The notes under the pieces were generated by a model that saw nothing but the letters and a program-made list of their open reading frames with translations, searched no databases and was not told the origin of the DNA. Positions 40,370 to 57,216 of a stretch of DNA of 64,000 nt are shown here, in pieces (the first letter of the stretch is position 1; every line of letters starts with the position of its first letter). The position numbers were made by a program, and so were the translations under genes. The stretch spans positions 157,640 through 221,639 of the forward strand of contig CAZAKN010000001.1 in NCBI GenBank assembly GCA_964486065.1, read 5' to 3'. Source of the DNA: an uncultured Gammaproteobacteria bacterium (GTDB lineage: Bacteria > Patescibacteriota > Patescibacteriia > UBA11705 > JABHMO01).

Positions 40370-41596
40370 CTAGCCCATCCCGCTTTCTCCCGTCAGTCGT
40401 GAAAATATTCTCATGAGTTTTTTATAATAAGTTTCAAAATCATTATCTTTTTCAATTTGCGCTCGGGCCGCGCGGCCCATTCTCTCAAGTTCACCTGACG
40501 GCAAATCATACATTTCTTTTATGCGTTTCGCCAAGTCCTGTTCATTGCCGGCTTGAAAAAATCTTCCGGTTTTATCCGGTGCCACAAGTTCTTTGGCTCC
40601 TCCCAATTTACTGGATAAAACCGGCTTACCCATGGCATAGGATTCCAAAATCACCATGGGATAGTTTTCATATGACTCGGAAGGAAAAACCGTAAAACGA
40701 GCTTTACTGATAATTTTTTGTAAATCTTTACCGTATTTGGCGCCGAGAAATTCTGTATTTTGCAATTTATATTTTCGCGCCAAGCGTTTAGCCTCCGTGG
40801 CCAGCGGACCTTTACCCACAATTTTAAGTGGTAGCTCGGGATTGGCTCGCATAGCTTTCAATAAAGTGAGAATGCCTTTATGACCGATCAAGCGACCGAT
40901 AAAAACAATGTCTTTACCTGCTTCATATCGGGGCACGAAATTTCGCAAATCAAGCGCGTTAGTAATCACTTCCACCGGCTGTTTAACTCCCCAATCTTGA
41001 ATTTTTCGCGCCAAAAATTTACTCGGTGAAATAAATAAATCAATTTTGCGACGATAATAACCGAAAAACCATTGCAAGTAAAGCTCTTTGGCGGCAAGAA
41101 TACTCGCCAAATACGAATCCTGTACGCATTTATTTAATATGCAATTGTAATATTTACGCTTTTTGCAACGCTCGCAAACCGCATTCTCGGTATAAAGCGA
41201 ATAATTCGGACAAATTATTTGATAATCATGCAAAGTTTGGATTACAGGAATTTTTCGCTTATTTAACGGCTTTAAGATTGAAGGAGACAGATAATGATGA
41301 ATATTGTGTAAATGCGCCACATCCGGCGAAAATTCTCGTAAAAGCGATTCCAATCTGCGCGCCGCTTCAGGATAATAAATATAGCGAAAACTTTTTCCCA
41401 ACCACCCGCTATGTTCTGAAAAATCCGTATTGGGAACAAAAAAAATATCTTGCTCGCAAGGCTCGTTCCTTAGATCTTCCATGGAAAAACATTGCACTTC
41501 ATGTCCCTTGCTTTCCAATAATTCCTTTTCTTGCAAATATACTCGCTCCGCACCTCCGCGCAAATAGTGAAATTTGTTGATCAGTAAAATTTTCAT
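40370..41596 (-). CDS. Glycosyltransferase family 1 (GT4)
   Basis: GT-B fold motifs, E.....E C-terminal motif. Confidence 0.7.
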   Translation of the reverse strand: MKILLINKFHYLRGGAERVYLQEKELLESKGHEVQCFSMEDLRNEPCEQDIFFVPNTDFSEHSGWLGKSFRYIYYPEAARRLESLLREFSPDVAHLHNIHHYLSPSILKPLNKRKIPVIQTLHDYQIICPNYSLYTENAVCERCKKRKYYNCILNKCVQDSYLASILAAKELYLQWFFGYYRRKIDLFISPSKFLARKIQDWGVKQPVEVITNALDLRNFVPRYEAGKDIVFIGRLIGHKGILTLLKAMRANPELPLKIVGKGPLATEAKRLARKYKLQNTEFLGAKYGKDLQKIISKARFTVFPSESYENYPMVILESYAMGKPVLSSKLGGAKELVAPDKTGRFFQAGNEQDLAKRIKEMYDLPSGELERMGRAARAQIEKDNDFETYYKKLMRIFSRLTGESGMG

Positions 41597-42667
41597 TTAT
41601 AAACTGTTATATAAATCTTGGTATTGTTTGACCGTTAAGTTAATATCAAATTTTTCTTTAACATCATTTTGCATTTGCGCGGCCAATTTCTTTGCTTCGC
41701 GCGGATTTTCAAAAACCCATTGCAAATGCGAAAAAAGCTGTTCTATATTCTTCGCCTTGAAAAGCAATCCGTTTTTTTTATCTTGAATTATTTCCGGAAC
41801 TCCTCCCACATTCGTGCCGATAACCAGACACCCGGCGGCGGAAGCTTCCAAAACGGCCAAACTGAGTCCTTCACTTTCCGAGGGTAAAACAAACACATCC
41901 CAAGTCGCCAAATATTTCTTCACATCATGAGTAGTCCCAATGAATTTCACATTTTCCTTCATGCCCAGACCAGACACTATACTTTCCAACTCTCCACGCA
42001 AAGGACCATCCCCCACCAATTGCAAACGCCAATCTTCTTTCGGCAAAAAACGGCAAGCTCGGATCAAATGTTTATGTCCTTTTTCTTTGCTCATTCTTCC
42101 CACATTGCCGATAATAAAAGGTTTATTTTTTAATATTTTCTTATCAGGATTGGCGAATTTTCGCGTATCAATGCCATTGTAAATCACTTCCACTTTTTCA
42201 AAATCCAAACCTTCATTATTTATCAAATGTTCGCGGATAACATTGGAAATGGCAATCACTTTATCCATTTTTTTACGCGAACGATTGCCGAGAAATGTCT
42301 TGGCGCGACCTTCGTTTAAAATGTCATGCCTCGTGCTGATAATTTTTTTCACCTCCGCGCGACGAGCCGCCCAAGCTCCCCAAAAATCAGCTGCGAACAA
42401 ATTGGTGTGAACAATATCCGGTTTTTCTTGTTTTAAATACAAAGTTAAACGATTCACCAACTCCACATCGGTTTTACCCGATTTATTGAAAGTTTTTACT
42501 TCAATACCGTATTCTTCAAAATCAGGCAATAAAAAATTATCATCATCTCGCATCACGCAAACACTGATTTTAAATTTTTGCTTGTCTATGCGCTTACAAA
42601 TATCCAGAAGCAATCTTTCCGCCCCCCCATAACCCAAGCCTCCTATCATGTAACAAATTTTTTTCAT
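41597..42667 (-). CDS. Glycosyltransferase family 1 (GT4)
   Basis: GGAERLL N-terminal motif, 356 aa. Confidence 0.7.
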   Translation of the reverse strand: MKKICYMIGGLGYGGAERLLLDICKRIDKQKFKISVCVMRDDDNFLLPDFEEYGIEVKTFNKSGKTDVELVNRLTLYLKQEKPDIVHTNLFAADFWGAWAARRAEVKKIISTRHDILNEGRAKTFLGNRSRKKMDKVIAISNVIREHLINNEGLDFEKVEVIYNGIDTRKFANPDKKILKNKPFIIGNVGRMSKEKGHKHLIRACRFLPKEDWRLQLVGDGPLRGELESIVSGLGMKENVKFIGTTHDVKKYLATWDVFVLPSESEGLSLAVLEASAAGCLVIGTNVGGVPEIIQDKKNGLLFKAKNIEQLFSHLQWVFENPREAKKLAAQMQNDVKEKFDINLTVKQYQDLYNSL

Positions 42668-42713
42668 ATATTTATTATCTTCACTTCCAACTTAATGAAA
42701 ATCGGTAATTAAA

Positions 42714-44150
42714 TCAAGATTTGGCATATCTTGGATCTTTTTTAACAAGTTCCGAGCCCACCAACATTAATCCGCAAGGTAGCCACATTTTGGCTATAAA
42801 ATATGAAGTGGAAAAAAGTTGCGCGAAAAACATTCCGCCGGCCATGAGAAACAATGCCAAAATCAACATTTGACCTTCGTGATTAACACTGAAAAACATT
42901 TTGCCCGTGCGATAAAACAACCATATAAAAAATATGACAAATGAAATAAATCCGAATAAGCCGGTTTCGGTTAAAAGTTTTTGGATAAAACCATGGGCAT
43001 CCAAGGGATCACCGTATTGAACCCAAAAAGCGAATGTTTCACCGATGATTTCTTGAAAAGTTCCCAATCCATGCCCGACAAATGGATGTTCTCCCCAAGC
43101 GGACAAAGTGATCATGGTCATCATCAAACGATTGGAAGTGGAAGTTTGCACTTCCTTTTCTTGCACCCAAACGGTAGAATAAAAAACTCCCATCGCCAAA
43201 ACAAGTAAAACCAAAACCGCGATTATTTCAAATTTTTTGAATTTGAATTTTATCAAATGATCTTTGTATAAAAATAAAGCCAAAGCTAAAACCTGTAAAC
43301 CCAAAACCAGCCAGCCCGTTCGCGAAAATGTCAACATAAGCACGATGCTCATAAACAAGATGGCCAATAAATACCAACCCTGATGCTTGATTTTCCTCGC
43401 CGTGAAAAATAAAAACAAAGCCGCCGGCACGGCAATTATCAAACTTTCCGCCACAGCGTTATGATTCCCCTCCAGCCAATTCAATCCGAAAATCGGCCAC
43501 GGCGTGGCTCTACGCATAAACCAACCTCCTTCACTGAAAAGAACGGTCAAAAATCCCAGCGTAGCTGACAATAGTCCACCCGCCAAAATCATCCAAAGAA
43601 TTTTTTTTAATTCCACTTTACTTTTTATGATATTGAACGGCAAAACCATAAACATGATGTAAGCGAAAACCAAAGGACGAAGAAAAAACTCAGCAGACAA
43701 CTGCCAGTGCGGAGTATTGATAAAAGATAAAGCCGATGCCACGAAAAAAATCAAGGCATAAGTCCAACCGGGCATGCGAGTTATGCTGGGCTCCTCCGGA
43801 GAGGGACGACAGACTGCGCCTTTAAGAAATTGACCGGTTAGCATGCGCATTAAAATTCCTGCAAGTAAAAGCAAAGCGAATAAATCAACATACGGGACAC
43901 TGAATCCGAAAGTTTCGGCTCTCAACCCCCAAAACGGCATAAAAAATGCCATTAAATAAAGTCCCAAAATCGGATAGACCGCAAACAATAAGGATATCAA
44001 CATGGCCACTTCAAAAAACAAAACATAAAGCCATGGAAAAAAATAACTGCCTATAAAACCGGCTATCACAAAAACAATTAAGAAAAAGCCACTCATTTTT
44101 TTCAAATCCTCAGCACTCAATTTAAATGTTTTATTATTCATATTGTACAA
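42714..44150 (-). CDS. O-antigen ligase/polymerase-like (Wzy_C family) polytopic membrane protein
   Basis: About 12 TM helices with large periplasmic loop, 478 aa. Confidence 0.55.
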   Translation of the reverse strand: MYNMNNKTFKLSAEDLKKMSGFFLIVFVIAGFIGSYFFPWLYVLFFEVAMLISLLFAVYPILGLYLMAFFMPFWGLRAETFGFSVPYVDLFALLLLAGILMRMLTGQFLKGAVCRPSPEEPSITRMPGWTYALIFFVASALSFINTPHWQLSAEFFLRPLVFAYIMFMVLPFNIIKSKVELKKILWMILAGGLLSATLGFLTVLFSEGGWFMRRATPWPIFGLNWLEGNHNAVAESLIIAVPAALFLFFTARKIKHQGWYLLAILFMSIVLMLTFSRTGWLVLGLQVLALALFLYKDHLIKFKFKKFEIIAVLVLLVLAMGVFYSTVWVQEKEVQTSTSNRLMMTMITLSAWGEHPFVGHGLGTFQEIIGETFAFWVQYGDPLDAHGFIQKLLTETGLFGFISFVIFFIWLFYRTGKMFFSVNHEGQMLILALFLMAGGMFFAQLFSTSYFIAKMWLPCGLMLVGSELVKKDPRYAKS

Positions 44151-44260
44151 ATTATAGCATATTTTTGATTATAATCACACAAAAAAAGTCTGTTCACAAA
44201 ACACGGAATTCCAAACATGGAAAATTCTTAACGATCTATGATCCGTGTTTTGTGGCAAAT

Positions 44261-44292
44261 AAAAAAGGCGGAAGCTGTTGCTTCCGCCTGAA
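44261..44292 (-). terminator. Terminator of the giant gene (ggcggaagc-tgtt-gcttccgcc, T-run on minus strand)
   Basis: 9-bp stem, A6 before on plus strand. Confidence 0.7.
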
Positions 44293-44310
44293 AGTTATAA
44301 AGAACGAAGT

Positions 44311-47300
44311 TTACAAATCAAGATCATTGCAGTCAAACCCGTCAATGGTAACCGCGGCCTTGGTTTGGAAACCTTCCTGAATGGAATAGGGCGTTCCTCC
44401 ACCCAGTTCCACATTGGTCACATTGGTGACCATGCCGTTGTTTTCCGGCCAGGCCAGCCAATCCGTCTCATTGTGGCAATTGTATTCCAGCCACGGGGTT
44501 TCGGTATCTTCATGGTTGCCCCAGACACAGACATCCCGCAAGGAGACAGTCTTAGTGCCGGAGACTTCCGGATCCGAATCCCAGATGTTATCGCCCGTAC
44601 CGAGCTTACCCCATACCAAGTACAAAGTATTGTCGACTGGACAAGTAAAGTGGACGGTCAAGCATCCTTCATCGGTGCGACCGTCGCAGTCATTATCTTC
44701 TCCATCGCAGACTTCCACACCGGGATTAACCGGCGAACAAGCATACTCGCAACCGTTGCGGGGATTTTCGTCAACATCGTAATATCCGCTATTGCAGACA
44801 TCGGGCTGACAACTCCCCTCCTGACACGAGTAGTTCGCGACATTGAGGTACTGCAGATAGGAACAGCTGTTGCCACAGGCGCCACAATGGTTACGGTCAG
44901 TTTGAAGATCAAAGCCTTCATCAACCTCACCGTTACAATCATTGTCCACACCGTCGCAAGCTTCGGTTCCGCCGTTGGTCATGCCACAGGGACCGTATTC
45001 ACAGCCATCCTCGTCATTTCCATTGGCGTCGTAGTAACCGCTGACGCAACTGTTCACCCGACACACACCGCTAACACAACCGGTGGCGGAAGTGTTTTGT
45101 AGCAAAGTGTTGCAGTCATTACCGCAACCGCCACAATTGGCTTCATCCGTGGACTTATTAAAGGTCTCGTCCACCTGACCGTCGCAGTCATCGTCCAAAT
45201 CATTGCAGACTTCCGAGGTCAACGGCATAACCGCGTCCTCACAATCTCCCCAAGTAAAGCCATCCAGACAAACTTGAGTACCAAACTCGCAAATGCCTTG
45301 CTCATTGGCGGGTCCGCAATCACGAACCGCTCCGGCCTGACAAATACAGCCTTCATCCGTCGTCCCGTCGCAATCGTTGTCCACGCCGTCGCAACTTTCC
45401 ACGACCGACATGTCTTCCGATCTTCCGGGCATGGTGGAGCAGGCGTAATCATTCAGACCATCGCACTCAATCACACCAGGTCCGGCGCAAGCACCAAGAC
45501 CGTAACAAAGCGCGCCAACGAAATAATCTTCGTCGGTTTGTCCGTCAAGGTCGTTGTCCTTACCATCGCATAGTTCGGATGCGCCCGGATAAACCGAACT
45601 GTCATTGTCGACCGTATCTCCTTCGCAAATCCGAACTCCATCTTCATCGGAGTCGTTTTCGTTCACGGGAACGGAACCGTCGCAGTCGTCATCCAAACCG
45701 TTGCACAGCTCAGTGGCTTCCGGCATGATCGCATCGAGGCAATCACCCCAGGACATACCGTCCGGCGAACAAGTCTGCGTTCCAAAAACGCAAATCCCTT
45801 GTTCATTGGCGGATCCACAATCGCGAGTTTCGCCGGCTACGCAGGTACAACCTTCGTTCACCGAGCCATCGCAATCATCGTCCAAACTGTTACCACAGCT
45901 TTCCACGCCGGACATATCTTCCGATCCGCCGGGCATGGTGGAACAACGATAGGTGTTGAAAGTAGCGCACTCAATAGTGCCAGCTCCGCAAACACCGATA
46001 CCGTTACAGCTGGCACCGATAAAGAAGTCTTCATCCACCATCCCGTCGCAATCGTTGTCTTGGCCATCGCAGAGTTCCGCGTTACCGGGGAAATTATCCG
46101 GATCCAAGTCATCGCAATCATTATCGCAAACCTTGATTCCGTCTTCATCCTCATCCGCTTCCTCCGCGGGGATAACACCGTCGCAGTCATCATCCAAACC
46201 GTTGCAAGATTCCGCTTCGGCCGGTTCAACCGCTCCGACGCATTCCAACCACGATTTGCCGTCTTCGGCGCAGGTTTCCAAGCCATACTCGCAAGCTCCG
46301 ACATCGGTCGTACCGCATTGGCGAGTGACGCCTGCCACACAAACACACTCGGCATCGTTGATATCAACTAAGCCGTCGCAGTCATCGTCCAATCTGTTAC
46401 CACAAACTTCTTCGGAAGAAGCATCCGCGGAGCCACCGGGCATGGTATCGCACATTACGGTCGTCGTGGTGGCGCATTCCAATACGCCGACACCGCAAGC
46501 ACCCACGCCTTGGCAGGCATTACCGACACCGAACGACTCGTCCACCTGCTCATCGCAGTTGTTATCCAGTCCATCGCAGATTTCAAGCGACAAGGGATTG
46601 ATGGTGGCTTCAGCGTCATTGCAGTCTCCCGCGCAAACGCGAACACCATCTTCATCCTCATCCGCTTCTTCCGCGGGAACGGAACCGTCGCAGTCGTCGT
46701 CCAAACCGTTACAAAGCTCGGATTCTTCCGGCATGACCGCTCCGACACATTCACCCCAACCGTCTCCGGCCGGATTACAGGTTTGCACTCCGAACTCGCA
46801 AATGCCTTGATCCGTTTCCGGACCGCATGCGCGAGTGGAAGCCGGACGACAATTGCAATCATCATCGTTCAAATCAACGAGTCCATCGCAGTCATCATCC
46901 ATACCGTTATCGCAAACTTCCGTGGCGGAAGCATCAGCCGAACCGCCGGGCATGGTATTGCATTGCACGGAATTATCCGTAGCGCATTCCAAAGTCCCCG
47001 GCGTATCACCGCAAGCTCCGATTCCCACGCAAGCCGAGCCGACGAAATATCCTTCGTCCACCTGCTCATCGCAGTTGTTATCAATCCCATCGCAGAGTTC
47101 AAGCGACAAGGGGTTGATGGTGGCTTCAGCGTCATTGCAGTCTCCCGCGCAAACGCGAACACCGTCTTCATCCTCATCCGCTTCCTCCACGGGAATAACA
47201 CCGTCGCAGTCATCATCCAAGCCATTGCAAGATTCCGCTTCGGCCGGTTCAACCGCTCCGACACATTCCAGCCACGATTTGCCGTCTTCGGCGCAGGTTT

Positions 47301-49146
47301 CCACGCCATATTGACACTCACCGACATTGGTCGTGCCACATTGGCGGGTCTGCCCGGGGAAGCAAATGCAACCGTTGTTGACTACACCGTCGCAATCGTC
47401 GTCCAATTCATTGCCACAATCTTCGGCAATGGATTCATCAGCCGAACCTCCCGGTTCAGTGGAGCAACGCGTTTCGGTTTCACCGGCGCATTCCACCACC
47501 CCGACGCCACAAGCGCCGAGACCTTCGCAAGGCTCGCCAATCCCGAATCCCTCGTCAATCTGATCGTCGCAGTTATTATCCACGCCGTCACAGATTTCCA
47601 AGACATCGGGGTTGATGGTCGCCAAAGCGTCATCGCAATCACCTTCACAGATGCGGAAACCGTCTTCGTCCTCATCCGCTTCGTTGGCCGGGATTTGATC
47701 ATCACAATTGTTATCCAGCCCGTCGCAGATTTCCTCCGCTTCCGGATGGATCAACTTGTTCAGATCATTGCATTCCTCGCAAGCCAGAAATCCGTCTTGA
47801 TCAAGGTCAACTTCCGTTTCCAGCTTTTCGCCGTCACAGTTATTGTCCTTGCCGTCGCAAATTTCTTCGGCTTCCGGGAAAACAGCCGGATCCTGATCAT
47901 CGCAGTCTCCCGCGCAATTCAGGATGCCGTCCTCGTCTTGATCAACTTCATCCTCCGGCACTTGGCCGTCGCAGTCGTCGTCAAGACCATTGCATTCCTC
48001 GGCTTCCAAAGCCTGGCTTTCGGAGCCACCGGGCATGGTGGAGCAAATGACTTGCTCGGCATTGTCGGGATCGCATTCGTAAACGCCTTCACCGCAAATA
48101 CCTTGACCGGTGCAAACCTCTCCGACTTCATAGTCTTCGTCGGTTTCACCGTCGCAATCATTGTCCTTACCGTCGCACAGTTCAGCTTCGGCGGGCATAA
48201 CCGCGCCTTCACACTCACCCCATTCCCAAGTTTGATCCTCGGTTTGGAGGCAAGTCTGAATACCGAATTCGCATTCCCCTTCTGCAGTCTCGGGACCGCA
48301 ACGCCGAATATCATTCGGCTGACAAGTGCACTCTTCCTCGTCGGTTTCACCGTCGCAATCATTGTCGCGATCGTCCTCGCAAATCTCCGTCGGATTATCA
48401 GGATCGTCCACATAGCAGACATCCTCACCTTCCGGATATTCGCATCCGTCTTCCGGATCCAGATTGGCATCATGCTTACCACTTTCACAAGCGGTAATCT
48501 CGCACAAGCCTTCTTCGCAAACAAATTCTGCGACTTGCAGACCATCAAACTCAGCCTGACAGCTGTAGCCACATTCTCCGCAGTTTTCCGGATCCTCGGC
48601 CAGATTAAACTCTTCGTCAATCTCGCCATCGCAATCATTGTCCACGCCGTCACAGGTTTCCGTCTCCGGATCCACATTGCCTATGCAATTGGTCCATTGA
48701 CCCTGTTCATCGCAAACACGAAACCCCATTTTGCAAGGGGAAGTGTTTTCCGCGTCGGCGGAACCGCATTCCTCTCGCTCTCCGGGCGAACACTGTCCAT
48801 CCGGAATCACTTCGTCTTCATCACCATCCACCAAGTCGGCATAATCAAGCCAACCATCGTAGAGACAGTAACTGCCTCTACAACTGAAACCGGGTTCGGA
48901 ATAAACATCCAATCCCGCTCTCAGGCAATCTTGATCGGTTTCGCAACCGGTCACGATACAAGTTCCTGACAAGCAAGACGCCTGACTGATGGTACAGTCC
49001 GACGGCGTATCGCACTTCTCCGGGAAATTGACGAGTCCGGATTGATCTCCGTCCTCATCCGCTTTTTTCCCGCCGTTGCCGTCATCACATCCGGCGCCAT
49101 ACAGCGCGAAAAGCGTGATGAAAAAAATGGCCATCAATTGCTTCAT
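44311..49146 (-). CDS. Giant secreted Cys-rich repeat lipoprotein (about 1611 aa). It has about 20 MopE-like putative metal-binding repeats C.G.DNDCDG..DE interleaved with Cys-knot-like modules, and a distinct C-terminal domain. True start is ATG at 49146 (track ORF starts at an upstream TTG)
   Basis: Lipobox LYGAGC. Recurring CDG[VLK]DNDCDG..DE and C.G.G.C.G..EC motifs. RBS aaggagagaatcATG. Confidence 0.75.
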   Translation of the reverse strand: MKQLMAIFFITLFALYGAGCDDGNGGKKADEDGDQSGLVNFPEKCDTPSDCTISQASCLSGTCIVTGCETDQDCLRAGLDVYSEPGFSCRGSYCLYDGWLDYADLVDGDEDEVIPDGQCSPGEREECGSADAENTSPCKMGFRVCDEQGQWTNCIGNVDPETETCDGVDNDCDGEIDEEFNLAEDPENCGECGYSCQAEFDGLQVAEFVCEEGLCEITACESGKHDANLDPEDGCEYPEGEDVCYVDDPDNPTEICEDDRDNDCDGETDEEECTCQPNDIRRCGPETAEGECEFGIQTCLQTEDQTWEWGECEGAVMPAEAELCDGKDNDCDGETDEDYEVGEVCTGQGICGEGVYECDPDNAEQVICSTMPGGSESQALEAEECNGLDDDCDGQVPEDEVDQDEDGILNCAGDCDDQDPAVFPEAEEICDGKDNNCDGEKLETEVDLDQDGFLACEECNDLNKLIHPEAEEICDGLDNNCDDQIPANEADEDEDGFRICEGDCDDALATINPDVLEICDGVDNNCDDQIDEGFGIGEPCEGLGACGVGVVECAGETETRCSTEPGGSADESIAEDCGNELDDDCDGVVNNGCICFPGQTRQCGTTNVGECQYGVETCAEDGKSWLECVGAVEPAEAESCNGLDDDCDGVIPVEEADEDEDGVRVCAGDCNDAEATINPLSLELCDGIDNNCDEQVDEGYFVGSACVGIGACGDTPGTLECATDNSVQCNTMPGGSADASATEVCDNGMDDDCDGLVDLNDDDCNCRPASTRACGPETDQGICEFGVQTCNPAGDGWGECVGAVMPEESELCNGLDDDCDGSVPAEEADEDEDGVRVCAGDCNDAEATINPLSLEICDGLDNNCDEQVDESFGVGNACQGVGACGVGVLECATTTTVMCDTMPGGSADASSEEVCGNRLDDDCDGLVDINDAECVCVAGVTRQCGTTDVGACEYGLETCAEDGKSWLECVGAVEPAEAESCNGLDDDCDGVIPAEEADEDEDGIKVCDNDCDDLDPDNFPGNAELCDGQDNDCDGMVDEDFFIGASCNGIGVCGAGTIECATFNTYRCSTMPGGSEDMSGVESCGNSLDDDCDGSVNEGCTCVAGETRDCGSANEQGICVFGTQTCSPDGMSWGDCLDAIMPEATELCNGLDDDCDGSVPVNENDSDEDGVRICEGDTVDNDSSVYPGASELCDGKDNDLDGQTDEDYFVGALCYGLGACAGPGVIECDGLNDYACSTMPGRSEDMSVVESCDGVDNDCDGTTDEGCICQAGAVRDCGPANEQGICEFGTQVCLDGFTWGDCEDAVMPLTSEVCNDLDDDCDGQVDETFNKSTDEANCGGCGNDCNTLLQNTSATGCVSGVCRVNSCVSGYYDANGNDEDGCEYGPCGMTNGGTEACDGVDNDCNGEVDEGFDLQTDRNHCGACGNSCSYLQYLNVANYSCQEGSCQPDVCNSGYYDVDENPRNGCEYACSPVNPGVEVCDGEDNDCDGRTDEGCLTVHFTCPVDNTLYLVWGKLGTGDNIWDSDPEVSGTKTVSLRDVCVWGNHEDTETPWLEYNCHNETDWLAWPENNGMVTNVTNVELGGGTPYSIQEGFQTKAAVTIDGFDCNDLDL
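45420..48050. repeat. About 510-bp near-identical tandem DNA repeats (about 5-6 copies) inside the giant gene. Each unit encodes ...MPGGS(A/E)D.S...DDDCDG...C.YG.ETC...
   Basis: Long identical nt stretches, for example 46601-46700 vs 47121-47220. The MPGGS-encoding segment recurs at about 45430, 45935, 46440, 46950, 47455 and 48040. Confidence 0.75.
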
Positions 49147-49164
49147 GATTCTCTCCTTTGTTGT

Positions 49165-49181
49165 CCCCAAAAATTTTGGGG
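49165..49181 (-). promoter_or_regulatory. 5'-UTR palindrome CCCCAAAAATTTTGGGG immediately upstream of the RBS of the giant gene
   Basis: Near-perfect inverted repeat. A homologous CCCCCTAAATTTTGGGGGG sits in the same position in gene 53823-54857. Confidence 0.55.
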
Positions 49182-49342
49182 AGATTTAGGAAAACAGTAA
49201 AAGTAAACAAATTGTCAAACTTCACAAACTCTCATTCAAGGGGTTTTACAAATGAACAAATACTTTATTCATTCATAAAAATCCTTGAAGATCATACCTG
49301 CAACTTACCACGATTACTAATAAAAATAAATATTAAGACACA

Positions 49343-49388
49343 ATTTGCAGACATTTAATTTTAGCAAAAATAAGAACTTTTGTCAAGT
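49343..49388 (-). promoter_or_regulatory. Candidate promoter of the giant gene (minus strand TTGACA-17-TAAAAT), giving an about 195-nt 5'-UTR
   Basis: Plus strand tgtcaa at 49383-49388 and atttta at 49360-49365. Confidence 0.45.
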
Positions 49389-49417
49389 GTTGTTATTTAC
49401 ACATTTTTAGCTAATTT

Positions 49418-49450
49418 TAAATAAAAATTCCCCGAGACTGATAGTCTCGG
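49418..49450 (-). terminator. Terminator of gene 49463-51400 (ttccccgagact-gat-agtctcggggaa)
   Basis: 12-bp stem, A-run before on plus strand. Confidence 0.7.
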
Positions 49451-49462
49451 GGAATGATGAGT

Positions 49463-51400
49463 TTAAGGGGTTGGTAATTTTACCCAAATCCCTCTGTCAA
49501 CGCGGGGGTCATCAACGATTTCCTCCGCATTGACCCGGTCTCCATTGTCTTTTCGGTAAAATACCTCCTGAACATGGAAACCCGTCCTCTGGAAGTTGAA
49601 ATGGCTGGAGAAGTGTACTTCAACATACACCACTCCCCCCGAAACATCCTCCAAGTTGAGAGGAATCTGGAAGCTTTTCCCATCTTCCATAATAGGAATA
49701 CCGTCATACATAACAGCATCCCCATCTTGGTTAAAATGGGAAATCACGCCCCTGAGCATTCCTTCCGGAAGACCATCAGGAATATCTCTCATGACAACTC
49801 CGATATTTCCCGAAAGAGGGAAATTATCGGCGACGGGTTGCTCCTCCTCTGAGGCACCATCGTCACCATCGGAATCATCACCATCCTCGTCGTCTTCCTG
49901 CTCGTCGCCATCTGAGATATCGCCATCTTCTTGATCAACCACTTGCTGACAAGTGGTTTCCTCAAAAGTGGCAACAAATCCCAATCCGTGAACATGGTTG
50001 ATGTTTTCCACATCCACGGAAAGAGGACATTCTTCATGAACGAACATTACCTCTTGCAACTGAACGGCTTGAGGATCTGACCAGTTCTCTTGGTCATACA
50101 GCGCGTCAAACCAAATTCTTTTTTGGATAACGCGGCTAAGATCCAGCGACAAAGAGACACATCCGTCTCCATCCAATGCCAACCGGACTTCCTGTTCTCC
50201 ATTGTCAGAAATATATCTGACGGAGACATTATTACAGGAGTGCGGTCCACAGTGGCTCCAAACGGCGCAAATCGTGAGCTCTCCAGCTCCACTTTCATAA
50301 ACATCCTGTTCATCGCCGTCGGTATCGCCATCTTCATCATCGCCGTCCGTGTCGTCGTCTTCATCATCGCCGTCGGTGTCACCATCGGTATCGCCATCCA
50401 TGTCACCGTCTTCATCATCGCCGTCGGTATCACCATCGGTATCGCCATCCATGTCGCCATCTTCATCATCGCCGTCTTCTTGAGGCCGTTCACCTTCCAA
50501 GCAAACGCCTTGGTCACACCAGTAACCATTCCGGCAATCAAAGTCATCCTGACAAGTGGCGAGACATTCACCTTCCTCGCAGACTTCGTTGTCCGCGCAT
50601 AGGGATTTGAACTCGCAGAGATTTCCTTCTCCGCACCTTGCCTCATAGCAAGTACCGAGTTCCATCCCTTCCGGGGGAGTCAAGCACTCGTGATCGTATG
50701 TGCAGGACTGCTTTCCGGCACAACGACCGGTGTGCAGATCGCAATACTGGCTGTTCAGACAAGACTCGGGGATTTCCTCCCCCGTCTCATCCGTACATGG
50801 CGCGTACTGCAAACATGCACCCTCATCTCCACAGTAGAAACCGTGGAGGCAGTCCTCATAACTTCCACATGCATTTGCCTCTTCGCAAATGTTTTCCCTA
50901 CGGTCACACTGCTCCGTCAAGAAACAGTCAGTGTGCTCGCCACAACGACCTTCTTGCCATTGCGTCACGCATTCTTCATGAATGCATACATATTCCTGAC
51001 CTTCCTGCTCAGGCTCACCACAGTCGGAGGCTTCCTCGCACTCCGGCTCATACACGACACAAGTACCCATATAGCAGTACTTGCCCTCGGCGCAATCACG
51101 ATTACTGCGACAAGTTTCGTCGCCATCCGTGATGTCGTCGCCATCCGTGTCGCCGTCGGTCGGCTCATCCCCATCGGAGATGTCGCCGTCCGTGTCGCCG
51201 TCGGTCGTGGAAATCTGCTCAGCGCAGAATCCCGCACTCGTGCAGTACTGCCACCGCGCGCAATCGGCGTCGGTTTCGCACTGCGTTTCTTTGGCGTCCG
51301 AGGATTCTTCTTCCTCGGCTTTTTTCTTGTCGCCACAACCGGCAACAAAACCCGCGAAAGCCACCATCAGCATAAGCGCAAAAATCAGGTTCTTCTTCAT
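49463..51400 (-). CDS. Secreted Cys-rich, acidic DGD-repeat lipoprotein (645 aa), paralog of 51596-53677. Conserved C-terminal YVEVH...DDPRVDRG domain
   Basis: Lipobox FVAGCGD, (DGDTDGDDEDGDM)x2, Cys-rich module, RBS aaggagacagagtaATG. Confidence 0.7.
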   Translation of the reverse strand: MKKNLIFALMLMVAFAGFVAGCGDKKKAEEEESSDAKETQCETDADCARWQYCTSAGFCAEQISTTDGDTDGDISDGDEPTDGDTDGDDITDGDETCRSNRDCAEGKYCYMGTCVVYEPECEEASDCGEPEQEGQEYVCIHEECVTQWQEGRCGEHTDCFLTEQCDRRENICEEANACGSYEDCLHGFYCGDEGACLQYAPCTDETGEEIPESCLNSQYCDLHTGRCAGKQSCTYDHECLTPPEGMELGTCYEARCGEGNLCEFKSLCADNEVCEEGECLATCQDDFDCRNGYWCDQGVCLEGERPQEDGDDEDGDMDGDTDGDTDGDDEDGDMDGDTDGDTDGDDEDDDTDGDDEDGDTDGDEQDVYESGAGELTICAVWSHCGPHSCNNVSVRYISDNGEQEVRLALDGDGCVSLSLDLSRVIQKRIWFDALYDQENWSDPQAVQLQEVMFVHEECPLSVDVENINHVHGLGFVATFEETTCQQVVDQEDGDISDGDEQEDDEDGDDSDGDDGASEEEQPVADNFPLSGNIGVVMRDIPDGLPEGMLRGVISHFNQDGDAVMYDGIPIMEDGKSFQIPLNLEDVSGGVVYVEVHFSSHFNFQRTGFHVQEVFYRKDNGDRVNAEEIVDDPRVDRGIWVKLPTP

Positions 51401-51480
51401 TACTCTGTCTCCTTGCGGGCAACCATGCCCGCTGCTGTTAAGGTTTTTCCGAAATGAAATTTCTGAAAGAACGATATATT

Positions 51481-51509
51481 ATTCTATCAAATTTTGGCAT
51501 TTTTGTCAA
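51481..51509 (-). promoter_or_regulatory. Consensus-like promoter (minus strand TTGACA-17-TAGAAT) for gene 49463-51400
   Basis: Plus strand attcta...17 nt...tgtcaa. Confidence 0.55.
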
Positions 51510-51555
51510 TAGTACTTAGCAAAATTAGTGCATTTGGAAATTTTTGCCTAAATTT

Positions 51556-51580
51556 AAACAAAAACCCGTGCGTTTTACGC
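51556..51580 (-). terminator. Terminator of gene 51596-53677 (cccgtgcg-tttta-cgcacggg)
   Basis: 8-bp stem with flanking A/T runs. Confidence 0.7.
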
Positions 51581-51595
51581 ACGGGTTTGAATTAT

Positions 51596-53677
51596 CTAAT
51601 CAAACTCGCAATAGTCCCCTCTATCAACACGATCATCCAAGATCACTTCAGCTTGAATAGTTTCTCCATTCTGCAAGCCATAAATGACCTTAATCGGAGC
51701 TATGCCCGAAGGATTGAAGTTCCAATTTGGAGTGGAGTGTATTTGCACATACACCACACTGCTTAACGCTTGCTCCAAATCCAAATCATGTGAAAAACAC
51801 TTACCGTTGATCGGGATATTGTCATGAATGACAGAATGACCATCCATGTCAAAGTAAGAAAAATATCCCTTCCATCCTTCTTCGTTAATCGGATAACACG
51901 CGATAAGCGTATTCGGAGGAGCGCTCATGGGAAGGTGCTGATCTTCATCGCCGTCTTCAGCGATATCTTCGTCGCCATCCGGCTCCACAGGCTCATGGCA
52001 AGTGAAATCTTCAAACTCCAGAACATAGCCCCATTCGTCCCAAGAATACCGGACATCTTCCGGCGGAACGACAATAACGCAGTCTTCCATACGATATTCA
52101 GCCGACACGATGGTCGGTTTGGGCCAAATCCAGTTGTTCCCCGTATGCGCGTCAAATCTGAAACGCGCATTCCACACATCATCCAAATCCACTTGATGAG
52201 CAAAACAATTTCCTTGTGTCGGAATATCCAACTCCTGTAGCCCCCCCTCATACAAAGTATAAATCAAGGAAACTTGTTCATATTGCGAAAACCTTTCAGA
52301 GGCACAAACACGCAAAACACCATCTTCCCAATCATCGTCTTCAACGAGATCTTCGTCACCATCAACGGTGATATCCTCATCTCCATCTTCAGCGATATCT
52401 TCGTCGCCATCCGGTTCCGGCTCAGGCAAACACTCGCCTTCCTCGCAACCGTAATAGCATGGTTGACTCTCAACCCAACATACACCTTCGACACAATTAG
52501 GCATGTGATGAACCAACATAGCCTCTTGTGAACCGTCGGAGGATGGGACACAGATCCAACTCTCAATGCAGTCCTGATCCGACATGCATTCTGGTTGCGA
52601 ATTGCAAGCTCCGTTGGAGCAACCGAACTCACAAATTTCTATTAGAATGTTGCAGTAATGATCCTCTTGAACACAGACACCGGACGGGTATACCCGAACA
52701 TTTCCTGTCAAACACTCGGCAGGCAAATTTGTTTCCGAGCAATCGTTGTCGGTTTCACAATAATGCCAATCCGCACGATCAGCCCTTACACACCGACCGT
52801 CCTGACAGACATCACCGGTTGACGGATCACCGTCCACACAATCCACATCTATCTCGCACTCGTTGCCGGGAACGCATTCACCATTCTCGCAAATCTCACC
52901 GTCATCACAGTGGTTACGATATTCACAAACAAGATCAGCACAACGATAATCATAACAAGTACCGTAATCCAATCCTTCCGGCAACTCGCTACAATCATTA
53001 TCACTTTCACAAGCGGAAAGTTTTTCGCAACGACCGGTTTCCTGATTACAATATTGCCCGTTAAAGCAGGCTTCCGCGATTTCCACTCCGTCTTCATTAA
53101 CACAAACATTGTATTGTTTGCATTGATTGACTTCCTGGTCGCAAAAATAACCCTCTCTGCAATCAAGATTTTCCTCGCACTCTCGGGCCGATTCGCAAAA
53201 TCCTTGGCGGTTGCATTCTTCGTACGGGAGGCAATCCACATTATTGTGGCATTCACCCGAACCTTCCATGCATTGGCAATCAACGCAATTCAAGTCTTCT
53301 CTGCAATCCTCCGCGGAGCGGCACTCACATTCAGTGCAACGACTCGCGATACAAAGCTCTCCTGTTTTGCATTGGAAATCATAGCGACAATACCCTTGAC
53401 GATTGCTCGGTTCGGGGTCATCACCGTCTTCCACTTGTTCGTCACCATCAGGGCTGATTTCCGCGTCCAGATCACCGTCCACTTGTTCACTCTCCGTCTC
53501 CGGTACGCAGAAACCATCCGCGCAAAAGAATCCATCATCACATTGCTCATCGGACGAGCAGAGACTGATGGTGAACTCTTCGTCACCATCCAAGATTTCA
53601 CTTTTTTTTCCATCCTCACCGCAACCGGCGAAATAGATGGCAAAAAGCAACAGGACAACAAACTTAAACTGTTTCAT
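51596..53677 (-). CDS. Secreted Cys-rich, acidic repeat lipoprotein (693 aa), paralog of 49463-51400. It carries a duplicated EPDGDEDIAEDGDED segment and the same C-terminal domain
   Basis: Lipobox FAGCGEDG, collinear Cys pattern with the previous gene, C-terminal YVQIH..DDRVDRG. Confidence 0.7.
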   Translation of the reverse strand: MKQFKFVVLLLFAIYFAGCGEDGKKSEILDGDEEFTISLCSSDEQCDDGFFCADGFCVPETESEQVDGDLDAEISPDGDEQVEDGDDPEPSNRQGYCRYDFQCKTGELCIASRCTECECRSAEDCREDLNCVDCQCMEGSGECHNNVDCLPYEECNRQGFCESARECEENLDCREGYFCDQEVNQCKQYNVCVNEDGVEIAEACFNGQYCNQETGRCEKLSACESDNDCSELPEGLDYGTCYDYRCADLVCEYRNHCDDGEICENGECVPGNECEIDVDCVDGDPSTGDVCQDGRCVRADRADWHYCETDNDCSETNLPAECLTGNVRVYPSGVCVQEDHYCNILIEICEFGCSNGACNSQPECMSDQDCIESWICVPSSDGSQEAMLVHHMPNCVEGVCWVESQPCYYGCEEGECLPEPEPDGDEDIAEDGDEDITVDGDEDLVEDDDWEDGVLRVCASERFSQYEQVSLIYTLYEGGLQELDIPTQGNCFAHQVDLDDVWNARFRFDAHTGNNWIWPKPTIVSAEYRMEDCVIVVPPEDVRYSWDEWGYVLEFEDFTCHEPVEPDGDEDIAEDGDEDQHLPMSAPPNTLIACYPINEEGWKGYFSYFDMDGHSVIHDNIPINGKCFSHDLDLEQALSSVVYVQIHSTPNWNFNPSGIAPIKVIYGLQNGETIQAEVILDDRVDRGDYCEFD

Positions 53678-53794
53678 GATATTCTCCTTTTTTTTGATTG
53701 TTTAAAGGAACAAACTAACATTATACTGTAACAAATTTTTAATCTTTTGGCAAGTGCCAAAGGTGATTAATTAAAACACAATAATTAAAAAACC

Positions 53795-53821
53795 ATGCGG
53801 TCAGACCGCATGGTTTGTTTT
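53795..53821. terminator. Bidirectional terminator (ccatgcggtc-aga-ccgcatgg)
   Basis: 9-bp stem flanked by A5 and T7. Confidence 0.7.
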
Positions 53822-53822
53822 T

Positions 53823-54857
53823 TTAAAAGATGCAATAAACCCCTCTATCAACGCGAGGGTCATCCGTGAGCTCCCCAACCTTAACGGAATTTCCGTCATT
53901 GGTCTGAACCTTCATGACGGGAATTCCGGTTCTACGATAGTTGTACTTGGCTCCTTGGTGGAGCTCCACATAAACAGCTCCGTCCAAGGCTTCTTCCAAA
54001 AAGAATGGAAACGAAAATTTGTTTCCATCCAATGGGATACCATCATACTGAACCGAATCCCCATTCATGTCAAAGTACGAAAAGTACCCTGCATAGGCAC
54101 CCGGTGGAGTATCACAAGGCAAATCCACCCAAACCTCTATCTCGTAGAGGTCTGTCCAGTTGCCCGGTTCAGGCCAACAGGCCAACGATTCTCCCGAATC
54201 CCCCGGATCTTCTTCCTCGTCAGTCGCCGGTTCTTCACCGGGATCATCCATTTCTTCGCCCGGGTCCTCTTCGGGATCCTCACCGGGCTCTTCCTCGTCT
54301 TCCGGATCATCCAGATTCTCACCGGCGGTATCCTGGTCTTCCCAGTCTTCCACCGGTTCCTCGCCTTCCGGCTCGGAACTGTCACCGGGCATATCACCGT
54401 CTTCGGGTTCATCACCATCGGGAATATCGCCGTCTTCAACGGCGTTGCCCCAGCCACGAGGCAATTCGCTTTCATCCACGCAGGTACCGAGGATTTGCTC
54501 CTCTCCCAGCCCGGATTTTCCCTTCAAGGACATCTGGAACTTTTCTTCCAGATTGTCCACGCAGACCATGCCGGCGGGGCATTCGGTGATGACGACAGGC
54601 GGATCCTGGAAATGGATCACGCCGTTCATGTCTCTGCCATATTCCATACGGCAGATTTCGGGAACGCAACGCCGCCCCTCGTATCCATCGTAAAAACCTT
54701 CCAGACATATCCAGCCCGGAAGCTCACATTCCGCGTCGGTGAAACACGTCTGCGGACCATCATCCGTGGAGATCGTCCCCATGTCCACCTCGGTGGCACA
54801 ACCGGTAGCAAACATGAGCATTGTAATTATACACACAATAACTTTAACTTTCTTCAT
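53823..54857 (-). CDS. Secreted Cys-rich acidic-repeat lipoprotein (345 aa). N-terminal module shared with 55052 and 56203 genes, C-terminal module shared with 49463 and 51596 genes. Start at ATG 54857
   Basis: Lipobox FATGC, PRGWGNAVEDGDIPDGDEPEDGD segment, C-terminal YVELH..DDPRVDRG, RBS aaggagagaataATG. Confidence 0.7.
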   Translation of the reverse strand: MKKVKVIVCIITMLMFATGCATEVDMGTISTDDGPQTCFTDAECELPGWICLEGFYDGYEGRRCVPEICRMEYGRDMNGVIHFQDPPVVITECPAGMVCVDNLEEKFQMSLKGKSGLGEEQILGTCVDESELPRGWGNAVEDGDIPDGDEPEDGDMPGDSSEPEGEEPVEDWEDQDTAGENLDDPEDEEEPGEDPEEDPGEEMDDPGEEPATDEEEDPGDSGESLACWPEPGNWTDLYEIEVWVDLPCDTPPGAYAGYFSYFDMNGDSVQYDGIPLDGNKFSFPFFLEEALDGAVYVELHQGAKYNYRRTGIPVMKVQTNDGNSVKVGELTDDPRVDRGVYCIF

Positions 54858-54876
54858 TATTCTCTCCTTTGTTTGT

Positions 54877-54895
54877 CCCCCCAAAATTTAGGGGG
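54877..54895 (-). promoter_or_regulatory. 5'-UTR palindrome CCCCCTAAATTTTGGGGGG upstream of the RBS of gene 53823-54857
   Basis: Homolog of the 49165-49181 element. Confidence 0.5.
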
Positions 54896-55018
54896 AAGTT
54901 GAAGTTCTTTGCTTTTTTCAAAGAGCAATTTGATGTTTAAAATTAACAAATTTTTTAATCTTTGTCAATAGCCATTGATTATTCCTTGAAATATCACCTA
55001 AATTTAAATAAAAAAGCT

Positions 55019-55043
55019 CCGTTGGATTTCCAACGGAGCGTTG
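55019..55043. terminator. Terminator (ctccgttgga-tt-tccaacggag)
   Basis: 10-bp stem, T-runs on both strands. Confidence 0.7.
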
Positions 55044-55051
55044 TTTTTTTG

Positions 55052-56035
55052 TTAAAGCTCTCCCAAAGGATAGCCATCACCTTCTTTGTAAGCGCCGATG
55101 TTCATCGGTTCTCCGTTGAAGAATGCGACCACCGGAGGATTATGCCTTCCTTCCCAGCGACTACCGTTTGTCAGATCGGTAGCATAGTTTCCAAGCGAAC
55201 AGTCCGCTTCCGTCAATTCCCAGGAAACGCACTCCCACTCGGCATGATCAATCCCCCAATCATCTTCCATGCATTCACTGAAAGAACACATTCTGTATGA
55301 TGGGTGATCGTTCATGATTTGCCCCCAGCCTCCTTCTTTACAGGAGTCAAAGACCAAACTCCCGTAATAGGACTCCACGATATACTGCCAACAAATGATG
55401 AACCGTCCCGTTTGGAAATGCTCGTCACCATCGGGAATATCTCCGTCTTCGGGCTCGTCGCCGTCTTCCGGTTCATCACCGTCTTCCGGTTCATCACCGT
55501 CTTCAGGTTCGTCACCGTCTACCGGTTCTTCCCGGTCTTCCACCGGTTCTTCGCCTTCCGGCTCGGAACCGTCATCGTCGGGCATATCGCCATCCCCCTC
55601 GGCGTTTCCCCAGCCGTTTTTAATGTCTCCTTCGTACACGCAACGGCCCAGCTTTTCCTCGCGTCGTAGGCCCATGGATTCGGCCAATGCCTCGGCTTCC
55701 TCCTCGGTGAAGCTTCCGTACTCACCTTCCACTTCGTCCAGCGATTCCAGCTGGACACACTCCCAAGCTTCCGGGCAGGCGCTAGTCTTCGGCGATTCAT
55801 ACTGAACCTGTCCGTTTTGACTAATCGAAAATGTCAACCTGCAAAAATCATACAGGCATCTTTTTTCTTCCGGGTTTTCTTTGCTAAGACCGCAAATATA
55901 CCCTTCTTCGCATTCCTTATCTTGAATGCAGATCTCCGGACTTTCGTCAGTTTTCACCGTTCCGAGATCGACGACCGTCTGGCAACCCATTACCCCGACG
56001 ACGATCAAAAACATCAACAATATACTGTAACGCAT
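55052..56035 (-). CDS. Secreted Cys-rich acidic-repeat lipoprotein (328 aa) with (EPEDGD)x5 repeat and a YYGSLVFDSC C-terminal module shared with 56203 gene
   Basis: Lipobox VMGCQT, RBS aaggaggacgccATG. Confidence 0.65.
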   Translation of the reverse strand: MRYSILLMFLIVVGVMGCQTVVDLGTVKTDESPEICIQDKECEEGYICGLSKENPEEKRCLYDFCRLTFSISQNGQVQYESPKTSACPEAWECVQLESLDEVEGEYGSFTEEEAEALAESMGLRREEKLGRCVYEGDIKNGWGNAEGDGDMPDDDGSEPEGEEPVEDREEPVDGDEPEDGDEPEDGDEPEDGDEPEDGDIPDGDEHFQTGRFIICWQYIVESYYGSLVFDSCKEGGWGQIMNDHPSYRMCSFSECMEDDWGIDHAEWECVSWELTEADCSLGNYATDLTNGSRWEGRHNPPVVAFFNGEPMNIGAYKEGDGYPLGEL

Positions 56036-56160
56036 GGCGTCCTCCTTTTTTTTGGGATAAAAATTTTTTGAAAAGAACAATTTATATTATCAAATAATCT
56101 TATTTTTGTCAAGTATTATGCCATTTTTAGTGTTTTTGTAAAATATTTTTTAATATTAAA

Positions 56161-56190
56161 AAATCCGCTCCATTTGGAGCGGATTATGGT
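56161..56190 (-). terminator. Terminator (atccgctcca-tt-tggagcggat)
   Basis: 10-bp stem, A5 before on plus strand. Confidence 0.7.
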
Positions 56191-56202
56191 TGTTTAAAGA
56201 AC

Positions 56203-57072
56203 TTACTCGTCGCCGGGCGCGACGGGCTGTAGATACCAACCCAGATCGTATTCGCCGACGGTCCCCAAGACCTCGTTGAAGGCCACCGACAGCGGCTTTT
56301 TGCTTTCGCCAAGCCAATTGGACCCGTTGGTCAGCGCTACCTTAAAGTTGCCGGATGCACAGGCCTCCGCATCAACGAACCACGCCACACAGTTGCCCAT
56401 ATGGCTGTAAGCCCCGTCTGCGTCTTGCCACTGAGTGTAGCCCGCCGACTCGCAGGAGTCGAAGACCAAGCTACCGTAGTAGCCGGCTGGGATAGCATCC
56501 CAGCACACTTCAATGGCATACTCCTCCGGTAACTCAATCGGCGTTCCGGGATCTTGAGTATCCGGAACATCCCCGTCTTCAGGCTCGTCACCATCGGGGA
56601 TATCACCGTCTTCCGGTTCATCACCGTCTTCGGGTTCGTCGCCATCGGGGATATCGCCGTCTTCAACGGCGTTTCCCCACCCACGAGGCAGGTGCGAGAT
56701 TTTCTCACACTGACCGAGCAACTCGGACTCACTCAGTCCGAGCGTTTCCGAATGATCTTCCTGATCCTCCATGTCCAACACCACGCAAGTGTATTCTTCC
56801 GGACAAGCAGACACTTCCGCCAGATCATCCTGGACTACGCCATGAATGTCTTGCGTGTACTCCAACACGCAAAACGGCGTGCACCGTTTGCCTTCCAGAT
56901 CGCTATAATAACCTTCGGCGCAAATCTGCGCCACTCCACATGTTTCATCCGTCACGCACCGTTCCGGACTTTCGTCCGTTTTGATGGTGCCTAACTCTGC
57001 TTCCGTGTGACAGCCCGCCGTAAGTCCGGCGAAAACCATCACCAACACGATCAAAAAGATCATTCGGTTCAT
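56203..57072 (-). CDS. Secreted Cys-rich acidic-repeat lipoprotein (290 aa), paralog of 55052-56035. Start at ATG 57072
   Basis: Lipobox LTAGC, RBS aaggaggaacccATG, shared PRGWGNAVEDGDIPDGDEPEDGD. Confidence 0.65.
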   Translation of the reverse strand: MNRMIFLIVLVMVFAGLTAGCHTEAELGTIKTDESPERCVTDETCGVAQICAEGYYSDLEGKRCTPFCVLEYTQDIHGVVQDDLAEVSACPEEYTCVVLDMEDQEDHSETLGLSESELLGQCEKISHLPRGWGNAVEDGDIPDGDEPEDGDEPEDGDIPDGDEPEDGDVPDTQDPGTPIELPEEYAIEVCWDAIPAGYYGSLVFDSCESAGYTQWQDADGAYSHMGNCVAWFVDAEACASGNFKVALTNGSNWLGESKKPLSVAFNEVLGTVGEYDLGWYLQPVAPGDE

Positions 57073-57213: not shown

Positions 57214-57216
57214 TTA

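Follow-up and report, generated by a model that had tools for sequence, protein, structure and literature searches.

This study concerns a large gene on the minus strand of a 64,000-nt stretch of contig CAZAKN010000001.1 (hereafter the window), taken from a metagenome-assembled Patescibacteria genome. The gene encodes a 1611-aa protein that contains tandem repeats with a period of about 510 nt. A preliminary description of this DNA had regarded the repeats as near-identical units arising from recent duplication or ongoing concerted evolution, and had expected their number to vary from strain to strain. Our analysis instead revealed an array of four full units diverged throughout most of their length, two short near-identical tracts that link the first full unit to its neighbours, and the same number of units in each of three strain assemblies. 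We consider it likely that this is an old tandem array in which two short-patch intragenic conversions occurred while unit number remained stable among strains. The gene and its repeat units are as follows.

44311-49146, minus strand: coding sequence of the large gene (ATG at 49146, stop codon 44311-44313, product 1611 aa; from the open reading frame listing)
47371-48330, minus strand: U0, expanded and rearranged relative of the unit, 320 aa (partial matches to the unit hidden Markov model)
46858-47370, minus strand: U1, full unit, 513 nt / 171 aa, a mosaic containing both near-identical tracts (protein anchors)
46348-46857, minus strand: U2, full unit, 510 nt / 170 aa (protein anchors)
45850-46347, minus strand: U3, full unit, 498 nt / 166 aa (protein anchors)
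45349-45849, minus strand: U4, full unit, 501 nt / 167 aa (protein anchors)
44839-45348, minus strand: U5, partial unit, unit-like over the first ~82 positions of the hidden Markov model and then composed of another type of Cys-rich module

Anatomy and divergence of the repeat array

Direct-repeat families with start-to-start spacings of 498-516 nt were identified over positions 45178-48006, with 60-86% identity to their reference copies. When units were delimited by anchors in the protein sequence, four full tandem units were found at 45349-47370, in agreement with the period of about 510 bp first reported inside the gene. Codon-aligned comparison of unit pairs revealed 57-71% nucleotide identity and 52-72% amino acid identity, and synonymous differences between units were at or near saturation (pS 0.58-0.78). 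The characterization of the units as near-identical was thus not upheld for whole units, and the saturation of synonymous sites outside the patches described below spoke against their recent duplication. Tandem Repeats Finder, run over positions 42000-52000, reported no array of about 510 nt and nothing within 44311-49146, a null that is uninformative on the ~510-nt period because the program was limited to a maximum period of 500 and needs ~70% identity. Phase-variable (contingency) genes are recognized by a simple-sequence tract or an invertible element that switches expression; Tandem Repeats Finder listed no such tract within 44311-49146, and the open reading frame is intact in the window and in L001. 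In our reading, an ancient and conserved super-repeat of ~170 aa in the protein gives the coding sequence its ~510-nt period.

Two near-identical tracts in U1

Comparison of the gene with itself at all offsets revealed identity of 96/100 at two offsets only, 1023 and 516 nt; the next best value was 81/100. Maximal-segment analysis delimited the corresponding tracts, both of which have one copy in U1.

47162-47310, minus strand: tract A in U1 (partner U3 46139-46287; 142/149 identical, 95.3%; offset 1023 nt = 341 codons)
46139-46287, minus strand: partner of tract A in U3
47054-47195, minus strand: tract B in U1 (partner U2 46538-46679; 134/142 identical, 94.4%; offset 516 nt = 172 codons)
46538-46679, minus strand: partner of tract B in U2

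The longest exact runs in tracts A and B were 50 and 38 nt, respectively, and the similar tract in every other unit pair was at most 37 nt. A sliding window traced two islands of 92-98% identity, with U1 in both, and adjacent 60-nt windows were 45-65% identical. The maximal-segment scores were 114 and 102 compared with shuffle maxima of 73 and 70, and none of 10,000 codon-column shuffles reached them. Among conserved residues, identical codons were used at 42/48 and 39/44 positions within the tracts (~88%) compared with 35/65 and 41/77 outside them (~53%). The preliminary description had cited two examples of near-identity over more than 100 nt; as originally paired these segments were 22% and 34% identical, but a shift of -4 nt brought the first to 91/100 and a shift of +3 nt brought the second to 125/131. 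Similarity at the nucleotide level, for which it had proposed a self-comparison, was therefore present beyond protein constraint in two tracts; elsewhere all units had diverged. Tracts A and B show the features by which intragenic gene conversion is recognized, namely sharp edges and identity at silent sites within units that have diverged elsewhere.

We also considered whether the tracts are kept alike by selection on the peptide combined with codon bias, or by a function at the nucleotide level, whether through RNA structure or through an antisense product, for instance. The conserved MopE motifs do lie within the tracts. However, the CNGLDDDCDG core is present in all four units and near-identity is restricted to specific pairs, and protein constraint therefore cannot account for the tracts. 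U4 and the non-partner unit hold the same motifs equally well in protein without near-identity in DNA, and the rise in identical-codon use described above occurred in specific unit pairs only. The codon composition of the gene is unusual, with a G+C content at third codon positions (GC3) of 0.55 compared with 0.32-0.43 in neighbouring genes, and a long antisense open reading frame (46510-48969, plus strand) overlies the array; both would fit a constraint on the nucleotide sequence. On the other side, no Rfam family was found in the window, and antisense reading frames would be expected in any gene with few TTA, CTA and TCA codons, such as this one, which is rich in Asp, Cys and Gly. We regard constraint of this kind as a highly unlikely cause of the tracts.

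Unit number and tract history among strains

The strain set comprised three sequences: the window and two further loci, L001 and L002, whose products are the other members of the protein's 90% cluster (P0121 and P0122). The gene in L001 was 99.28% identical to that in the window, with 35 substitutions and no indels. L002 was 95.7% identical, with 207 substitutions and an array free of indels; alignment with the window left gaps in the L002 gene only at a run of Ns in the signal-peptide region. All three assemblies contained four full units and their arrays were collinear. In this small sample, the comparison among strains did not support the predicted variation in repeat number, which applies only at greater distance (the orthologues P0003 and P0004, below). 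Orthologous units were 93-96% identical compared with 57-71% for paralogous units, and whole units thus show no concerted evolution; what stands of that proposal is the two patches of ~145 nt in U1 that exceed protein constraint. The ratio of nonsynonymous to synonymous substitution rates (dN/dS) was 0.23 for the window compared with L001 and 0.09 for the window compared with L002; restricted to U1-U4, the latter comparison gave 0.11, which indicates purifying selection on the gene between strains. Together with the absence of Tandem Repeats Finder matches in the gene, these dN/dS values of 0.09-0.23 gave no support to the suggestion of a phase- or length-variable surface protein.

In L002 (GCA_964434655.1), the 5' end of the gene at ~480-560 contained Ns and two in-frame stops, which account for the shorter gene call of 1533 aa. 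Either assembly or scaffolding went wrong at this point, or the L002 copy is a pseudogene. Scans of genome and metagenome contigs with the whole protein identified no further strains and returned distant MopE-repeat proteins only, mostly from Myxococcota (25-45% identity in the long matches; some very short segments reached 68%).

These comparisons bear on the idea that recently duplicated, near-identical units expand and contract by unequal recombination to give a length- or phase-variable surface protein. Against it, whole units are 57-71% identical and their silent sites are saturated, and the three assemblies, which differ by up to 4.3%, have equal unit numbers and no indel in the array; the gene yielded nothing with Tandem Repeats Finder and its dN/dS was ~0.1. 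Perfect identity over 38-50 nt at the in-frame offsets of 516 and 1023 nt does make RecA-type loss or gain of a unit mechanistically possible, unit number does vary among more distant orthologues, and the relative P0044 contains an exact internal duplication of 202 aa. Weighing both sides, we consider recent expansion and contraction very unlikely for this gene.

A second concern was that short-read assemblers had mixed the units and produced a chimeric U1. The source is a metagenome-assembled genome, in which repeats are a known hazard, and L002 displayed assembly trouble at the 5' end of the gene. Against this, the tracts are 5% diverged and not identical, their boundaries recur in three assemblies from different samples that each have their own substitutions, and the frame is intact over 1611 codons. 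An artefact of this type is exceedingly improbable. The risk of assembly collapse raised at the outset is likewise low, since exact identity never exceeds 50 nt and the three assemblies agree.

The two tracts differed in their history. For tract B, identity was 134/142 in the window and L001 and 132/142 in L002; orthologues differed at 2 sites and paralogues at 5-7, and the event linking U1 and U2 would therefore be older than the strain split. For tract A, identity was 142-143/149 in the window and L001 and 133/149 in L002. Over 115 nt of tract A, U1 of the window had 3-5 differences from U3 of any strain compared with 13 from its own L002 orthologue, and the U1 copies of the window and L001 together lay 3-6 sites from U3 of any strain and 13-14 from L002 U1. 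This pattern, with a paralogue closer than an orthologue, is what conversion during the divergence of the strains would leave; it was seen in tract A alone and was absent from tract B and from whole units. The informative sites in tract A (n = 16-17) split 13:3 or 12:4, a result of only moderate significance (P = 0.02-0.08; binomial P range overall 0.02-0.14). Among the L002-specific alleles in U1 tract A, 6/13 matched U2 and/or U4 at the homologous column and 7/13 matched no unit. U2 of L002 contained a run of 8 consecutive differences, all of which matched U4. At sites differing between the window and L002, both alleles occurred among paralogues in 52% of cases compared with 26±4% in a shifted-column control. 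These data suggest, without proving, that short conversions have gone on while the strains diverged.

Another candidate explanation applies solely to what is strain-specific in tract A: the divergence of L002 U1 could represent a divergent allele imported by homologous recombination between strains, and not a further intragenic conversion in the lineage of the window and L001. The 13 differences in 115 nt exceed the gene average of 4.3%, and the 7/13 alleles unmatched by any unit would be expected of such an import, whereas the 6/13 that match U2 and/or U4 and the run of 8 differences in L002 U2 that matches U4 point to templating by paralogues. We think import unlikely as the source of this part of the pattern.

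Proposed origin of the array and its tracts

We propose that the four full units arose by ancient tandem duplication and then diverged to silent-site saturation. Misaligned units, lying on the same chromosome or on sister chromosomes, would have paired by a RecA-type process, and non-crossover resolution would have left non-reciprocal conversion over ~110-150 nt. One patch would have homogenised the 5' third of U1 with U3, and the other the middle of U1 with U2, the latter before the split of the three strains. At about the time of that split or later, the patch shared by U1 and U3 was probably either refreshed or changed in its L002 copy. Among the strains the number of units is stable, and whole units are gained or lost only between more distant relatives. 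Had a crossover taken place at the tracts, precisely 172 or 341 codons would have been lost or duplicated without a frameshift; no such allele was present in the three assemblies.

Several points count against this proposal. Conversion could have run in either direction between the paired units. The three strain sequences are all metagenome assemblies, in which rare copy-number variants within a population would be invisible, and one of them, L002, has an N-gap and in-frame stops near its 5' end. The excess of shared alleles (52% versus 26±4%) is confounded by shared codon constraint. The closer relationship of tract A to its paralogue depends on 16-17 informative sites (P = 0.02-0.14), and import of a divergent allele from another strain could give the same tract A pattern.

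An origin of U1 as a hybrid of U3 and U2 by unequal crossover was considered and rejected: identity falls on both outer sides of the patches and does not reach the unit ends.

Comparison with known repeat systems

Gram-positive length-variable surface proteins such as alpha C/Rib, Aap/SasG and Esp contain whole-unit near-identical repeats, and their unit number varies among isolates. The protein studied here resembles them as a large, apparently secreted tandem-module protein with repeats of a few hundred nt and signs of recombination between units. It differs in that its units are 57-71% identical and their number is fixed in three genomes. In the pilE/pilS, vlsE and tprK systems, short non-reciprocal patches create a mosaic coding sequence. 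A short-patch mosaic is also seen in U1, but the donors would be neighbouring expressed units and the gene is under purifying selection. Searches for silent donor cassettes using blastn and tblastn with the units against the rest of the 64-kb window gave no match outside the gene.

The likeness to thrombospondin type 3, LDL-receptor class A and EGF/Notch-like repeats, which are extracellular eukaryotic modules that bind calcium and are rich in disulfides, is one of motif only, namely Cys-bracketed Asp-rich loops, and some database sources label relatives of the protein 'Notch 1' or 'Notch-like'. A related Cys-rich motif of teneurins has been aligned to PF11617 (PMC3278476), the Pfam family to which the repeated motif belongs. 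A search of the literature for PF11617 or MopE-related proteins in Patescibacteria returned nothing relevant beyond the paper on the teneurin motif and those on MopE/CorA structure.

We conclude that this is an ordinary modular gene for a probable surface protein, neither length-variable nor phase-variable. Annotators can accept the gene in its assembled form without a contingency or length-variable flag, and its ~510-bp period should be read as domain architecture, not as a young repeat. The locus provides a clean, small example of probable short-patch conversion in an old tandem domain array with fixed copy number.

Relatives and unit number at greater distance

Beyond the strains, the closest homologues were large proteins of 39-44% identity, one cluster of which (P0003 and its mates) is named Candidatus Falkowbacteria. 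The best relatives carried PF11617 only, under source names such as MopE-related, putative metal-binding motif-containing or Notch-like. In six relatives of Falkowbacteria type (P0003-P0006, P0012 and P0044), a hidden Markov model built from U1-U4 detected 3-7 near-full copies of the super-repeat of ~165-170 aa; the other homologues examined had at most one. It is chiefly these six that have the same arrangement, in which the super-repeat is combined with an N-terminus of lipoprotein type and a C-terminal domain specific to the family. With the wider group of MopE-related PF11617 proteins from Myxococcota and Patescibacteria, the protein shares the type of PF11617 stretch, of which it has 17, and the core motif, with 18 matches.

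The orthologues P0003 and P0004 were 89% identical in protein and differed by a single block of 392 aa, corresponding to about two units. The Falkowbacteria locus L078 contains younger units, with 84-87% identity over 500-766 nt. Gain and loss of units in the family is a feature of distances longer than strain level. In P0044 (945 aa), the exact 202-aa internal duplication lay at an offset of 207 aa; either a unit was duplicated very recently in this related lineage, or the assembly is at fault.

Gene order was also conserved. The giant gene was followed by Wzy_C (O-antigen ligase / oligosaccharyltransferase family) and two GT4 genes in the window (40370-49146, minus strand), in L001 and L002, and at the Falkowbacteria loci L078 and L079, where the giant proteins are 41-44% identical to that of the window and an extra radical-SAM gene and a methyltransferase gene lie within the order. 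The conserved order therefore identifies the window gene and the Falkowbacteria giant genes as positional orthologues. Given this synteny and the named homologues, the source of the window is most likely a Falkowbacteria-like member of the Patescibacteria. The gene order also hints at a functional link between the giant gene and Wzy_C/GT4; the enzymes might glycosylate the protein, for example, or all of them might act in one envelope pathway. Directly downstream of the glycosyltransferases in the window lies an hrcA-grpE-dnaK-dnaJ heat-shock cluster. These data document a conserved ~170-aa super-repeat and a Wzy_C/GT4 neighbourhood for the large MopE-motif proteins, probably lipoproteins, of Falkowbacteria-like Patescibacteria.

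The encoded protein

The 1611-aa product was a 100% match to the database protein P0001. Two features lie at its ends.

49087-49146, minus strand: putative N-terminal signal peptide with the lipobox-like end MKQLMAIFFITLFALYGAG followed by C (read by eye from the translation)
44314-44667, minus strand: C-terminal non-repeat domain, 118 aa (aa 1494-1611), weakly conserved in the Falkowbacteria orthologues

The hydrophobic N-terminus ends, as judged by eye, in AG followed by C, and there is no C-terminal anchor. Tyr at position -4 of this end deviates from the lipobox consensus. The two upstream genes encode the same type of N-terminus (...FVAGCGD and ...YFAGCGE). On these grounds the product is probably a secreted, lipid-anchored and very acidic surface lipoprotein.

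PF11617 (Cu-binding_MopE, "putative metal-binding motif") was the sole Pfam domain of the protein. Its 17 stretches scored 382.4 bits, well above the Pfam gathering threshold of 27 (E = 4e-117), and a search of NCBIfam with the 1611-aa protein gave no match. The core motif C-x-D-G-x-D-N-D-C-D-G was matched 18 times along the protein by regular expression, and the columns of the repeated core C-x-D-G-x-D-N-D-C-D-G-x-x-D-E were invariant or nearly so in an alignment of 24 units (A1). Each unit consists of three such MopE-type motifs and two small Cys-rich hairpin modules. The protein contains 14.5% Asp, 10.9% Glu, 10% Cys and 0.4% His, with an isoelectric point (pI) of 4.05; per unit there are 16-18 Cys and 41-43 acidic residues, with no His in U1-U4 and 6 His in the whole protein.

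The copper site of MopE* is formed by two His and a tryptophan-derived kynurenine (PMC3423442). The repeat units studied here differ from MopE* in having no His, and a copper site of the MopE/CorA type was accordingly not found in U1-U4. The name of PF11617 should not be taken to imply copper binding by this protein. MopE* and CorA also hold structural Ca2+ (PMC3912023). Among solved structures, the protein matched only MopE* residues 3-44 (E = 0.005), and fold searches with the model of the unit gave no significant match. It is a reasonable inference that the modules are stabilised by calcium and disulfides, and the protein may have a stalk-like role.

The C-terminal domain was 19-27% identical to the C-termini of the Falkowbacteria proteins and 15-27% identical over all non-strain rows of the alignment (A2). 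An AlphaFold2 model of this domain was beta-rich and, with a predicted local distance difference test (pLDDT) value of 50, unusable.

Gene boundaries and flanking signals

The program list gave an open reading frame of 44311-49170 (minus strand) from the first TTG. The start was placed at the ATG at 49146 because AAAGGAGAG lies 5 nt upstream of it. The reading frame is unbroken over the 1611 codons, and the open reading frame is intact in both the window and L001. Consensus matching identified two flanking signals.

49358-49386, minus strand: promoter-like site, TTGACA, 17-nt spacer, TAAAAT, with extended -10 TG (11/12 consensus matches; consensus match only)
44266-44289, minus strand: terminator-like hairpin, 10-bp stem then T-run, ~20 nt past the stop codon (consensus match only)

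A second terminator-like hairpin on the minus strand was assigned to the upstream gene, again by consensus match only. No family reached threshold in an Rfam scan of the 64-kb window.

Neighbouring genes and base composition

The 10 kb upstream of the large gene were 96.6-97.6% identical between the window and L001, with many indels. Two neighbouring lipoprotein genes differed in length. The upstream Cys/Asp-rich lipoprotein at 51596-53677 (minus strand) is 693 aa long in the window; its L001 counterpart (L001 5673-7946), with four extra copies of the 16-aa (48-nt) acidic repeat DGDEDIAEDGDEDITV, has 757 aa. The repeat lies at ~52338-52411 in the window. Unless it is a short-read assembly artefact, this is real strain-level variation in repeat number. 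The adjacent lipoprotein at 49463-51400 (minus strand) is longer in the window, at 645 aa, than in L001 (515 aa; L001 8141-9688). Missing from L001 is a block of ~136 aa (window ~49936-50304) flanked by two tracts of DGD-type acidic repeats, and L001 also contains an additional 7-aa repeat. The difference looks like a deletion between acidic repeats.

50310-50476, minus strand: acidic repeats of the adjacent lipoprotein gene

Further acidic-type tandem repeats of 18, 51 and 54 nt (minus-strand reading) were found at 55439-55541 and 56561-56664, in other genes of the G+C-rich cluster, and are candidates for more length variation. As a lead, the strain-level length differences that the two upstream Cys-rich lipoprotein genes show in their DGD-type acidic repeats are more useful than the large array. 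Short-patch conversion in the large gene and acidic-repeat indels in the two neighbouring lipoprotein genes could together represent deliberate diversification of exposed, possibly glycosylated surface proteins, although we consider this improbable. If it were so, a Patescibacteria episymbiont with a small genome might use such proteins for host attachment or for evasion of phage or host recognition, and the locus would vary by intragenic mosaicism with no silent cassettes involved.

G+C content was 0.47-0.54 and GC3 0.45-0.55 in the giant gene and in the Cys-rich lipoprotein genes upstream of it (44000-58000), far above the rest of the window; GC3 was 0.32-0.43 in dnaJ, grpE, GT4 and Wzy_C. 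The Falkowbacteria orthologues displayed the same excess, with a GC3 of 0.40 compared with 0.28-0.31 in their neighbouring genes. The excess is therefore a lasting property of the gene family, and recent horizontal acquisition was rejected as its cause. Codon preference and GC-biased conversion are candidate causes.

Antisense open reading frames of up to 819 aa overlapped the array, including 46510-48969 and others on the plus strand; most likely they exist simply because the coding strand has few TTA, CTA and TCA codons. Across the window, nearly all sizeable open reading frames were on the minus strand and GC skew was negative throughout.

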